DNA of 63,765 nt, counting the filler, from Reclinomonas americana ATCC 50394 (Eukaryota): the NCBI GenBank assembly GCA_048213135.1. It is 20 parts of 20 records of this genome, joined end to end, with 100 filler letters (N's around TTAATTAATTAA, not from the genome) between each part and the next. Parts side by side here need not be neighbours in the genome. Positions count along the whole stretch, not along the records: positions 1 to 2,992 come from AFZH01024399.1; positions 3,093 to 6,166 come from AFZH01024400.1; positions 6,267 to 9,195 come from AFZH01024401.1; positions 9,296 to 16,855 come from AFZH01024403.1; positions 16,956 to 18,513 come from AFZH01024404.1; positions 18,614 to 22,733 come from AFZH01024405.1; positions 22,834 to 26,219 come from AFZH01024406.1; positions 26,320 to 29,420 come from AFZH01024408.1; 12 more parts are not named here. One strand, written 5' to 3'. Position 1 is the first letter of the stretch. Every line of letters begins with the position of its first letter. This document shows positions 374 to 60,800 of the stretch, in pieces. The notes under the pieces were generated by a model. It was not told the origin of the DNA, ran no database searches, and was given only the letters and a program-made list of their open reading frames with translations. A program made the position numbers and the translations under genes.

Positions 374-2498
374 TCAGCCACGCAGAAAGGAGAGAGAGAG
401 AGAGAGACGAGCTTTCGCAGCCCTGATGTACGACGGGAGTGCTGATGGAGGCAGAAGAGCGATGAGCAGCACATCGTGCGTTCTCACAAGCAGGCGAAAT
501 ATGAAGAACGTATGCGACAGAGGGAAAGAGATGCGAATCCAGATGGAGGGAACAGCAACCGCGCTTGTGCACTGTGCCCACCACGCAACTGCTCCAATCT
601 CCGAATGCCACGTCTGTACAAACTGCACGTACACAAACCACAACGATCGCCCGGCCACCACAAAGATGAGCACCCAGCGGAATACCTCCAGCGGGATCAA
701 GCAGAGGATCTGTGCACGGTGTGAGACCAGCAAAGGCATGCACGCCACACACTCCACCAAACGAACCGCCACAGGAATGAACATTGCCAGCGAGTACGAC
801 ACAATTCCGAGAATCACGAGAAGTGGCACACTCTCCGAGCCGAGCAATTTGCCGGTGCCCCATAGTGCCAAGGGGACCACAGCTGTGCAGGAAAGAGAAT
901 GAGTGAAAACTCTAGATCTCCAACACCTTCAAAGTGAGCCGTTCCTTCATCTTGAGCGCTCGATCTCTCTTCTCCCCACTCACGTCATGCTTCGTTGCCC
1001 TTCCTACCTCGCATTCTTCCTCACTTCCATAATCTTCTCTTCATCGTTGTGAGCTTTCCCATTACTCAATCGTCGCTCTCAACATTCCACCCTCGCTAGC
1101 ATCTGTTCTTCAACTTCATCGTCTCACATCGTGCACTTGCTTCGGTACACGTCTTCTCTCCACACTCTCAGTCGCTCTCAGCATACAAGTCAATCGCTCG
1201 TATCTGCCACTCGTTTCTTCAATTTCATCGTCCTCATCATGCGCTTGCTTGTGTACACATTTTCTCTCCACACTCTCAGTCGCTCTCAACGTGCACTCTC
1301 TCACGCCACCCTCGTTAGCATCTGCCACTCGCTTCTTCAATTTCATCGTCTCTCATTGTGCACTTGCTTGCGGCTCTTCGCTTCGTCACTGTCTCAGTCG
1401 CTCTCAGCATACAAGTCACTCGTTCGTATCTGCCACTCGCTTCTTCAATTTCATCGTCTCTCCACACTCATCATATAATCTCTCATTCCGCCCTCGCTCC
1501 CATCTGCCACTCGCTTCTTCCAGTCCCTCGTTCCTCATTGTGAACTTACTTGCTCACACGCCTTCTCTCCACCCTCTCAGTCGCTCTAAACATACAAACT
1601 ACTGCACACGCATCTGCCACTCGCTTCGTTTGATGCAGCGCACATACTTGTGCATTCATTGACTCCACACTCTCAGTCGTTCTCAACATGAAATCTCTCA
1701 TTCCACCTTCGATCGCATCTGCCGATCCAGTGCATGTACATGTGCACGCATCTTCACTCCACAGCCTCACTTGTTTACACACAGAATCCACACCTCCTTC
1801 TCCCCTCCCCTCCCCCTTCCCCCTTCCCCTTCCCTCCCCACCTCCCTCACGCAACTGGCATACCCATAGATCAAGAGGCACGACATCGTAAACAAGTACA
1901 TGTCGTACGACCACGGCTTGATCATGGCGCCACCACCCTCCGGCTCCATGGTGTACGCATTGATCCAGGAGACGTACGAGGCGAGATTGCCCATGATGCT
2001 CATGACGATAATGAGGGTGGTGGTGATCCACAGCGGCCCGTACAGATCCGGATGCCGCGAGTACAGCTCAATAAACTCCGACTTGCGCGAGTACAGCGGC
2101 CACACGGTGCCCAGCAGGCGATTGCCAATATCCTCGGTGTTGACCTTGAAGTATGGCGCGTAGTAGGCCAGCTGCCAAAAGTACGCATTGGCCGAGGTCG
2201 GCGACATGGCGCCCGGTGCATTGCCGGGCGCAGCGGCGGCGGCCTGCGACTGTTGCGACGACGACGACTGTTGCTGGCCGGCCGGCGGCTGTCCTGGCAG
2301 CAGCGCCGCGCGATCGCCACGACTCTCCACGTCCATGTCGAAGGAGGTTCGTGGTGGGGTCGAGGGCTGCTGGAGGTGGAGTGCGCCGGGGCCCGCCGAG
2401 GGCGCCGTGAGCATTGGGAGTTTGGAGAATTCGAGGTCGTCGGGGGAGCGAATGAGGTTGCCGCTGGCGGTGCGGGTGGCCACAGTGGCGGTGGGGGC
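374..2498 (-). CDS. Yip1-domain Golgi membrane protein (YIPF1/YIPF2-like), spliced; ends approximate
   Basis: Exon 2498-1856 encodes FWQLAYYAPYFKVNT...PDLYGPLWITTTL...YGYA. Intron 1855-883 (GTTGCGT...CAG) joins it to (T)VVPLALW...YSLAMFIPVA, then ILCLIPLEVFRWVL. These match Yip1 family motifs. Confidence 0.88.
1090..1730. repeat. Degenerate ~110-bp tandem repeat inside the YIPF intron
   Basis: The motifs CACTCTCAGTCGCTCTC and ATCTGCCACTCG recur about 5-6 times at roughly 75-120 bp spacing. Confidence 0.75.
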
Positions 2499-2800
2499 CT
2501 GAGGGGAAAGGGAGAAGGTGGGAAAGGGAAAGGCAGAAGGGGAAGGAGAGAGAGACACGAAGAGCAAGGGGGAAACAGAGAGAAACTTGAACGATCGGCA
2601 GAGTGACGTAGACAGGATATGAACGGGTGCTGTCAGCAGCTGCAAACTTCTTCAAAGGTAAAGATGGAAAGAGGTACTGAGAGAGACAGAGAGAAGAGAG
2701 GCAGAGAAAGACAGAGAGACACTGCCTGATCGGCAGATTGACGCCGAGACACGAAGTGAGCGGTGCTGCCTGAAAGGGACACGAGGCACAGAGACAGACA

Positions 2801-59100: not shown

Positions 59101-60800
59101 GTACCTGCACCCAAAAGAGGTGAGAAGCTGCGGTGACAAGCAACGCCCCTTGGCGGAATAAACGCAACTTTTCCCAGCAGTGGAAACACAGACAGTGCAG
59201 ACGGTGCTCGGTGAGGACATCGCGCGCCTTGGCGAGTCGGCCGCGCAGCTCCAGCACGTGCGACGCCTCCACTCGCTTCGCCACCTCCTCCAGCATGTGC
59301 ACGGCCTTGACGTACGACATGTAGTGCGGTACCACTTGCACTTGCAGCACACTGGCCGCACTCAGGCGCTGCTGGAACGACTGCAGCACTTGATCGTGCA
59401 CGAGATTCACGGGCATCTTGGGCAGGCCCTCCACCAGCACGGTTTGTCTGGTGATATGGTGAGGTGAGTGAGGGGGAAGGATGTAGAGAACAAGAGAGTG
59501 TGCGGAATACCTGGAGACGCGAGCGGCCTGCACAGAGCTCGACATGTCGCGCACTTGGACGAGAGGGCCGTCGGCGCGCAGCTCGTAGTCGGAGGACATG
59601 AGTGGGCGGAGTGCGGGGGGCAGGAAGTGGCGGGCGTCCATGAGGTAAAGGACGACGAGGGCCATGAGGATGGCGGCGGACATGTGGGCCCACAGGCGGC
59701 CGGTTTCTAGGAAGGGGGGATGAGGGGAAGGGTGAGGGGAAAGAAGGGAAGGGGGGAGGGGGTAAGGGGAAGGGGGAAGGGGAGGAAGGCAAAGGCGGAA
59801 GGGGGGAAGGGGGAAGGTGAAGGGGGGAAGGGCGGAAGGGTGAGCGAGATAAAGGGCGACCGCGAGAGGAGCGAGAGAGAGCATGGCGAGAGGAGAGAGA
59901 GCAGGGCGAGAGGAGAGAGAGCATGGCGAGAGGAGAGAGAGCATGGCGAGAGGAGAGAAAGCACGGCAAGAGGAGGGCAGCGAGAGGAGAGAAAGCACGG
60001 CAAGAGGAGGGCAGCGAGAGGAGAGCAGCGAGAGGAGGGAGCAGCGCGAGAGAGGAGAGAGAGCACAGCGAGAGGAGAGAGGGCACGGCGAGAGGAGAGA
60101 GAGCATGGCGAGAGGAGAGAGAGCATGGCGAGAGGAGAGAGAGCAGGGCGAGAGGAGAGAGAGCATGGCGAGAGGAGAGAGAGCATGGCGAGAGGAGAGA
60201 GAGCATGGCGAGAGGAGAGAGAGCATGGCGAGAGGAGAGAGAGCATGGCGAGAGGAGAGAGAGCACGGCGAGAGGAGGGAGAGCAGGGCGAGAGGAGAGA
60301 GAGCACGGCGAGAGGAGAGAGAGCAGGGCGAGAGGAGAGAGCACGGCGAGAGGAAGAGCTGCAAGGGGAGAAATTAGAGAAAGAGGGAGAGTGGGGAAGC
60401 AGCGCGGCAGAGATGAGAGAGAATACTGCTCTTACTACCACTCGGTACGCACCAGTCTGCGTGCCCTCAATGGTGGTCTGCGCCAGTGTTGGATCAATGG
60501 GAGGCGGCATGGCGCCAACCAGACTCGAGCCCGTCATGTTGACGGGGAGCACAATCACGAGCAGGATGGCGGTGATGATGGCCAGCACGAGAATGACCTG
60601 TCGCTGCACGCACAGGTACACACTGGCGTCTTGTCCGATACGGCTGGCCTCCTGCGCGCGGTAGATGAGATTGCGGGGAGGCGTGGAAGATTGTTGGAGG
60701 AGGACGCAACATTCTCGCTGCGCCACACCAGCAGCAGATCGAACCACGAGATGGTACCGGCGCCAACGACTGGCGTGGAGTGCAGAATCGCATCGCACTG
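56197..60800 (-). CDS. TMEM63/OSCA/CSC1 mechanosensitive channel family, both ends incomplete
   Basis: ISWF...IGQDASVYL, IVLPVNMTG, RLWAH, TVLVEGLP, GRAFV, IIWEHM, FSSP, GAFFFSYL and PLG...YLADKY occur in family order. Confidence 0.88.
59867..60355. repeat. 20-bp minisatellite GAGCAYGGCGAGAGGAGAGA, more than 20 copies, in a TMEM63 intron
   Basis: Directly visible; it generates several spurious repetitive ORFs in the track. Confidence 0.95.

Follow-up and report, generated by a model that had tools for sequence, protein, structure and literature searches.

The window analysed here is a stretch of 63,765 bases from Reclinomonas americana, which is made up of 20 contigs, each between 1.1 and 7.6 kb in length. 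The contigs are joined by 19 identical linkers, each composed of 44 N, TTAATTAATTAA and another 44 N (the first at 2993-3092); since the window consists of joined small contigs, genes that flank a linker are not genomic neighbours. Within it lie an ABCG gene, an amine oxidase gene, a TMEM260 gene, a gene with a Peptidase_S74 domain, and genes that resemble the Yip1, DR1/NC2-beta, Hsp70, EPC and TMEM63/OSCA families. The subject of the present analysis is a class of introns in several of these genes, whose donors (5' splice sites) begin with exactly the same seven bases, GTTGCGT, and which occur side by side with introns of an ordinary type. An initial annotation of the window had proposed 12 first intron bases for this class, and all 12 lie on an exact GTTGCGT, among the 25 copies that the window contains. 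Every claimed intron is contained in one contig. The listed GTTGCGT sites are very probably introns, and that they would be spliced in vivo is what we infer from the sequence. All of them are collected in Table 1, together with the related variants.

The first line of evidence is homology. Introns were placed by a spliced protein-to-genome aligner that accepted all GT and GC donors and all AG acceptors. Because the aligner can also open spurious short "introns" at insertions of the window protein, junctions were accepted if they were recurrent or required by the reading frame. The ABCG gene, aligned with 12 homologues, served as a control: five introns were placed, four of them with all 12 homologues and the one at 24427 with 11. 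One of the five is a variant, and none has an exact GTTGCGT donor; the search for ABCG homologues returned no protein more than 64% identical. For the amine oxidase gene, 40 homologues of 440-520 amino acids among the 150 matches listed were aligned, and an ordinary GTACGT intron at 47946 was placed in 39 of the 40, in the same gene in which two class introns were chosen. For the TMEM260 gene, the search found three distant fish proteins, one of which was aligned, and the GTTGCGT donor was chosen with it; a competing pairing, of the GT five nucleotides (nt) downstream with an AG 8 nt further on, may apply at this junction.

The second line of evidence is the reading frame. Removal of the proposed introns restores the frame or the homology in three class introns and one variant by homology, and in eight further class introns by a frame change or a stop codon. 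The family motifs that continue across the frame-supported junctions are ones we presume to recognise. In the Yip1-like gene, the weak Yip1 match stops 12 amino acids ahead of the donor at 1855. A histone-fold Pfam match lies upstream of 10736, and what we take to be the DR1 C-terminal motif resumes at the acceptor of this intron. The exon after the intron at 40879 opens with an IEVEFD-type motif, presumably that of Hsp70; an in-frame alternative GT is present 6 nt upstream of this donor. For the TMEM63/OSCA-like gene (contig 55791-61371, minus strand), the removal of 14 introns gives a single open frame, and four of them belong to the class while ten are ordinary. One ordinary intron of this gene, with an ambiguous junction near 58833/58805, was omitted from the census below, as was a 15th donor at 56196, which has no assigned acceptor. 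A weak RSN1_TM match begins 6 nt past the acceptor of the intron at 60710, and the intron at 59168 could instead end at another in-frame AG, located 9 nt beyond the first. Five of the 13 class donors, at 1855, 10736, 13122, 48370 and 58595 (all on the minus strand), run on as GTTGCGTGA, with a TGA, and in the phase-0 cases among them (10736, 13122 and 58595) a retained intron would lead to an immediate in-frame stop.

Table 1. Probable introns with GTTGCGT donors (class) and related variants in the window. Positions count along the window; lower-case letters are the last bases of the exon, and the slash is the exon-intron boundary.
Type	Position	Strand	Donor	Length (nt)	Gene	Evidence
Class	48300..48370	-	gct/GTTGCGT	71	Amine oxidase	Chosen with 36 of 40 homologues; GGGY..GGAQ motif conserved across the junction
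Class	47497..47577	-	tgc/GTTGCGT	81	Amine oxidase	Chosen with 32 of 40 full-length homologues
Class	13060..13122	-	cca/GTTGCGT	63	TMEM260	Chosen by one fish homologue; in-frame TGA between two long open reading frames (ORFs)
Class	883..1855	-	cca/GTTGCGT	973	Yip1-like	Frame change; ORFs of 265 codons upstream and 169 downstream
Class	10551..10736	-	gat/GTTGCGT	186	DR1/NC2-beta-like	In-frame TGA right after GTTGCG
Class	40816..40879	-	att/GTTGCGT	64	Hsp70-like	Frame shift
Class	44595..44662	-	tcc/GTTGCGT	68	EPC-like	Frame shift; ORFs of 163 codons upstream and 85 downstream
Class	56532..57180	-	caa/GTTGCGT	649	TMEM63/OSCA-like	Frame shift; ORFs of 100 codons upstream and 247 downstream
Class	58535..58595	-	gct/GTTGCGT	61	TMEM63/OSCA-like	In-frame TGA and frame shift; chosen by donor-blind gene finder
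Class	59105..59168	-	aaa/GTTGCGT	64	TMEM63/OSCA-like	Frame shift
Class	60652..60710	-	aat/GTTGCGT	59	TMEM63/OSCA-like	Frame shift; chosen by donor-blind gene finder
Class, claimed	51332..51397	+	cac/GTTGCGT	66		Motif, CTAAT branch-like site and CAG; weak
Class, candidate	442..589	-	gca/GTTGCGT	148		Donor-aware gene finder only, absent from the initial annotation; weak
Variant	25761..25827	+	caa/GTTTCGT	67	ABCG	Chosen by the aligner with 12 of 12 homologues
Variant	50270..50340	+	gat/GTTACGT	71	Peptidase_S74	Frame change into the frame that bears Peptidase_S74
Variant, possible	4323..4401	+	gaa/GTTATGT			ORF logic, no family support; end counted by hand

Of the 12 introns proposed at the outset, 11 are supported, while the one at 51332 is weak. 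As for the variants proposed with them, those at 25761 and 50270 are supported, and the one at 4323 is possible. The gene names fared unevenly. TMEM260 and the amine oxidase are solid, and Yip1, the DR1 histone fold, Hsp70 and RSN1_TM have weak Pfam matches (E values of 1e-4 to 2e-3). The exon ORF scans gave no Pfam match for EPC, and no Pfam support was obtained for ATP6AP2, the name proposed for the gene at 51332. The gene with the intron at 44662 is one that we take to belong to the EPC family; the names TMEM63 and EPC are our assumption, together with one weak match. In the Pfam scans of exons (103 and 72 ORFs), the short TMEM63-like exons mostly had no match, and two single-exon searches of solved structures returned nothing relevant.

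A GT is present 5 nt downstream of the first intron base at every class site. It had been claimed that in most cases this second GT does not restore the frame. For the 13 class introns and the two variants at 25761 and 50270, the claim stands at 10 of 15 sites, at which the downstream GT has no frame-keeping AG within +/-15 nt; the other five (13122, 44662, 47577, 48370 and 60710) do have an alternative AG, and at 47577 and 48370 the downstream GT is rejected by homology.

The heptamer is also in clear excess, regardless of any gene model. On both strands, GTTGCGT has 25 copies against 9.47 +/- 2.98 expected, and 25 or more copies were obtained in none of 100 shuffles; the expectation of an order-3 Markov model for the window is 10.8. 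Only two of the 25 copies are preceded by G, and neither of them is donor-like. In addition, the excess can be tied to introns by a gene finder that is blind to the donor, that is, one which scores codon usage, intron length and the 3' signals and treats all GTs as equal. Among its 134 introns, GTTGCGT is used six times against 0.46 expected (p=8e-6) and is the most enriched heptamer, GTTGCG and GTGCGT are used seven times each, and the introns at 58595 and 60710 were picked. Similar results come from the 3' ends. Among the heptamers located 40-95 nt upstream of 254 strong modules of branch site and YAG, GGTGCGT ranks first (11 of its 16 copies), and GTTGCGT is the second donor-like word, with 9 of 25 copies against 2.5 expected, although its overall rank is 14th, as CT-rich intron words rank ahead. 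Counted at 45-100 nt before such a module, it again has 9 of 25 copies, against a baseline of 864 of 7327 for all GTs (p=0.0015). Two further copies, at 9913 and 37912 (both on the minus strand), have a 3' module at 70 and 50 nt, respectively, with frames open on both sides; they lie in sequence of no recognisable coding identity, and may be introns of untranslated regions or chance occurrences.

For the census, 41 introns were curated: 11 by homology, 19 by frame and motif, and 11 by a donor-aware gene finder or the initial annotation alone. They comprise 13 GTTGCGT introns, two GTTNCGT introns and 26 ordinary ones. From independent positional frequencies, only 0.44 GTTGCGT donors would be expected instead of the 13 seen (p=3e-16), and in the 30 better-supported introns 11 are seen against 0.51 expected. 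The donor-aware gene finder gives 11 of 51 introns as GTTGCGT, a figure which is model-dependent, since its matrix contained the class as well as one ordinary site that was two bases off. The class accounts for about one fifth to one third of the introns analysed, in a biased sample. That the motif observation is real and far beyond chance is confirmed.

The two types of donor differ most clearly at the last exon base. G is found at -1 in none of the 13 class introns (the candidate at 589 included) and in 23 of the 26 ordinary ones (Fisher 7e-8); the absence of -1 G from the 12 sites first proposed was correctly noted. The other positions of the ordinary donors are G at +3 (21 of 26), C, T or A at +4 (17, 8 and 1), G at +5 (22), and T or C at +6 (19 and 7). 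They are G/GTGYGT-like, and not G/GTGMGT-like as most of them had been described at the outset. The ordinary donors without -1 G, at 58342, 41223 and 41989 (minus strand), all have a perfect GTGCG(T/C) core, which fits a compensation between the pairing of the exon end and that of the intron.

In all other respects, the two types of intron share the same anatomy. All 41 curated introns start with GT and end with AG. A branch-like CTNAY site (criterion YTNAY) is present 6-32 nt from the YAG 3' end in all but one of the class introns (12 of 13) and all but one of the ordinary ones (25 of 26). Nine class introns are 59-81 nt long and 24 ordinary ones 55-85 nt, with a few long introns in each type, and the class as a whole spans 59 to 973 nt. 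Furthermore, class and ordinary introns alternate inside single genes, as in the TMEM63-like gene, which contributes four class and nine ordinary introns to the curated set. The best explanation is that the class introns are true U2-type GT-AG introns, which share branch sites, acceptors and lengths with the ordinary ones.

Some simpler accounts were rejected. U12-type introns are characterised by an RTATCCTT donor and a TCCTTAAC branch, whereas the donors of the class are GTTGCGT and its branch-like sites are of the same CTNAY type as those of ordinary introns. A systematic G-to-T error of base calling in GGTGCGT is at odds with the frames, which demand that the G be intronic. The use of TGA as a sense codon would cover 13122 and 10736 alone, as the other introns shift the frame. 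A mixture of two source organisms does not fit the alternation of both donors within single genes.

How could such a donor be recognised? In our estimate, the chances are about even that the GTTGCGT donors form a discrete second consensus, H/GUUGCGU, with the U1 pairing shifted by one position (+1). When the two types are aligned on their common CGU block, the bases before GCGU are G-G-U in the ordinary donor and G-U-U in the class donor, that is, they differ by one substitution. The spliceosome of this organism would read the heptamer signal G-GUGCGU. In a class donor, U would be substituted for the second G of this signal, and U1 would keep pairing with the G and then with UGCGU, one base off its usual step. 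The cut would go to the sole GU left, which is one base upstream, and the exon would be one base shorter. In such a mechanism the rest of the signal must be perfect, so a strict heptamer is expected. U1 pairing in the shifted register as the cause of the class is what we infer from these comparisons.

Several observations bear on this proposal. The shifted register demands U at +3, where it pairs with A7 of U1, and does not demand G at -1. The extra base is indeed restricted to U: GT[ACG]GCGT shows no enrichment, with 27 copies where 35.6 would be expected, and a 3' module follows GTTGCGT in 9 of 25 copies but GT[ACG]GCGT in 1 of 27 (p=0.004). In composition, the -1 position of the class agrees with the ordinary -2 position and not with the ordinary -1 position: the chance that none of 13 donors has -1 G is 6e-13 at the frequency of the ordinary -1 position, compared with 0.11 at that of the ordinary -2 position and 0.014 at background. 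In nearest-neighbour folding, the class donors adopt the shifted register, in which U+2 stands opposite C8 of U1 as a 1x1 U.C mismatch.

However, a number of points weigh against the shifted reading, or against the generality of the class on which it is built. With the canonical U1 5' end, the pairing of the class donors is no stronger than -1.1 to -2.2 kcal/mol, while the ordinary consensus reaches -8.9, so that a plain shift on a standard U1 seems too weak for a common class. The -1 and -2 bases of the class are explained no better by the shifted profile than by background, as worked out by hand from the census counts. An Rfam scan of the window gave 0 RNA matches, thus there is no U1 or U6 within the window. 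The curated set over-represents genes already seen to contain the motif, which inflates the share of the class. A stricter filter, which combines a required short intron with a 3' module and with frames open for 30 codons in both directions, is unspecific: it retains 9 of 25 GTTGCGT copies against 10 of 59 copies of control heptamers (p=0.085), and merely 14 of 80 copies of GTGCGT. The copy at 39157-39163 (minus strand) lies within a WD40 repeat match, in what is seemingly a plain, unspliced exon, so the heptamer alone is insufficient for a donor. Finally, the read-through frame at 589 is open for 71 codons without the intron, and the intron at 51332 is in frame and free of stops, so the frame would stay open without its removal.

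The weakness of the pairing would be relieved if U1 itself were changed. With hypothetical U1 ends that have a G reading +4C, the class donors were modelled at -5 to -10 kcal/mol, and the invariant CGU block together with the C at the ordinary +4 position suggests that the organism does read +4C. Tentatively, then, there is some prospect, well short of an even one, that the cut is routinely decoupled from the U1 register: one G-NUGCGU helix, probably formed with a U1 changed for +4C, would serve two cleavage frames, and a large minority of introns would depend on a register that occurs in other eukaryotes as a rare exception, or else a second U1, dedicated to this minority, would be present.

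The alternative that survives best is that the register is canonical and that one U, at +2 or +3, is bulged out of the helix with U1, and later with U6, in the same introns. We consider it unlikely. In its favour, the number of base pairs equals that in the shifted register, the two identical U's make the bulge degenerate, and this register has been validated in human cells, according to the portion of PMC4856993 that was consulted. It is also favoured by the folding if a -1 G is hypothetically supplied. A bulge of this kind keeps the pair between -1 G and C9 available, yet -1 G is wholly absent from the class and present in most ordinary donors, which is an indirect test. No other extra base is used, as the scarcity of 3' modules after GT[ACG]GCGT indicates, and the folding of the sites as observed prefers the shifted mismatch form. 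The shifted register is thus favoured over the bulge by the absent -1 G, the restriction of the extra base to U, and the folding. What also speaks for the bulge is that U6, by its pairing scheme, would require the CGU block to lie one base further from the cut in either case.

It could also be that an altered or additional small nuclear RNA (snRNA) simply matches the class, either a U1 changed opposite +3/+4 or a second U1 complementary to GUUGCGU. The CGU block, invariant in the class and its variants, as well as the 17 of 26 ordinary donors with +4C and the modelled energies cited above, are in line with this explanation. Precedents exist, for instance the Mastigamoeba U1 with ACGUAC facing GUGCGC and the Entamoeba U1 with AACAAAC facing GUUUGU, as given in the part of the preprint used here (bioRxiv 10.1101/2022.06.08.495308). 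By the same part of that source, however, Micromonas and Thecamonas have a standard U1 despite their +4C donors. The window holds no snRNA, and two U1 species would not alone account for the missing -1 G. On balance, this explanation appears improbable.

Many of the sites might not be donors at all, if the true splice used a neighbouring GT or if the segments were kept. The GT that always lies 5 nt downstream has a frame-keeping alternative AG at 5 of 15 sites, an in-frame GT precedes 40879 by 6 nt, and 51332 and 589 are unnecessary for an open frame; moreover, the coding signal is weak, and a retrained donor-blind gene finder diverged into chimeric models. All this has to be set against the excess of the motif, its selection by the donor-blind tests, the choice of the exact GT by homology even though the downstream GT was equally allowed, the ten sites with no frame-keeping alternative, and the identity of seven bases at no fewer than 11 independent junctions where 0.44 would be expected by chance. 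We regard this possibility as slight. Hardly credible is the idea that the class represents a family of recently inserted introners with a terminal GTTGCGT: conservation of the 5' end is strict and GTTGCG recurs inside the introns at 58595 and 57180, yet class introns are no more alike among themselves than they are like ordinary ones (mean local score 13.6 for class-class and 13.3 for class-ordinary, with 55 and 209 pairs, Mann-Whitney p=0.75), and their lengths range from 59 to 973 nt.

Returning to the shifted register, the reading that had been put forward at the outset retains the match of the heptamer, the contrast at -1, the restriction to U and the folding in its support, while the pairing with a canonical U1 is weak. 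This reading is partly supported and is the best candidate among those considered. Its routine use, as further claimed, would draw on about 40 to 50 inferred introns in a motif-biased sample.

Some comparisons with known systems can be made. In human, shifted-register 5' splice sites have been described, in which all U1 pairs are displaced by one position (Roca and Krainer, 2009, according to PMC4856993). These sites resemble the class in that GU is followed by U, the consensus is displaced by one base, and cleavage still takes place at the GU. They are isolated and rare, with a consensus of the GUAAGU type, whereas the class in the window adheres strictly to one heptamer, against a GUGCGU background, and comprises about one fifth to one third of the inferred introns. 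The human sites with a bulge at +2/+3, of which 54 to 68 are predicted among 201,541 donors (PMC4856993, Table 3), share the extra U right after GU, but differ from the class, in which -1 G is wholly absent. All validated noncanonical registers combined amount to 1.5% of human donors (PMC4856993).

The ordinary donors of the window, G/GTGCGT or GTGCGC, and the CTNAY branch sites resemble those of lineages with +4C donors. GTGCGT(G) is the main donor consensus in Ostreococcus and Micromonas (PMC2483917, PMC3879977), and +4C donors are also found in Mastigamoeba, with GUGCGC, and in Thecamonas (bioRxiv 10.1101/2022.06.08.495308). In the portions of these sources that were covered, no GUUGCGU class is described, and the text of the preprint, as far as it was covered, does not contain the words bulge, shift, register, GUUG or GTTG. 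Full-text word searches of the papers covered likewise gave no description of a GUUGCGU donor class, of which donor logos in supplements could show a trace. The GUUUGU donor of Entamoeba is similar to the class in having U at +3 and in departing from GURAGU; however, the part of the preprint consulted describes it as a single near-universal consensus with a changed U1 (bioRxiv 10.1101/2022.06.08.495308), whereas in the window two discrete donor classes exist within the same genes.

Some other features of the window are recorded here. Three long introns of the TMEM63-like gene, at 59707-60452, 57520-57960 and 56532-57180 (minus strand), are filled with tandem or low-complexity repeats, namely a CT-rich unit of about 20 nt in one, purine-rich tracts in another and CT-rich tracts in the third. 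Long false ORFs in this gene result from the repeats, and a homologue search with an ORF from a repeat-filled intron returned no match. In the gene at 49666-51241 (plus strand), which is eukaryotic, the Peptidase_S74 (endosialidase chaperone) domain is interrupted by an intron with the donor gag/GTTTGT at 50485, and a weak beta-solenoid (FapA-like) match lies upstream; this gene may be a MYRF-like self-cleaving protein, an assumption of ours. Contig ends are often (GA)n, (GAA)n or (GT)n microsatellites, and the strongest over-representation among hexamers is that of CTCTCT/GAGAGA (724-733 copies). Two contigs are bacterial-like. The one at 16956-18513 has 63% GC, a DnaA_N domain and intron-free ORFs, and the one at 26320-29420 has 65% GC and intron-free ORFs for a LysR protein (HTH_1 and substrate domain), an alpha/beta hydrolase and a dUTPase. 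Both probably come from a contaminant or an associated bacterium. The remaining contigs are eukaryotic, with 51-61% GC and short introns.

If the shifted reading is true, R. americana would offer a natural setting in which U1 pairing and cleavage are commonly, not just exceptionally, out of step by one base. The way in which U5, U6 and Prp8 set the position of the cut once U1 has departed would then be open to study on hundreds of native introns. The class is also relevant to the question of co-evolution between snRNAs and unusual donor signals. In practical terms, gene finders built on a single donor matrix would overlook or wrongly place a considerable fraction of this organism's introns, which would lead to frameshifted proteins.

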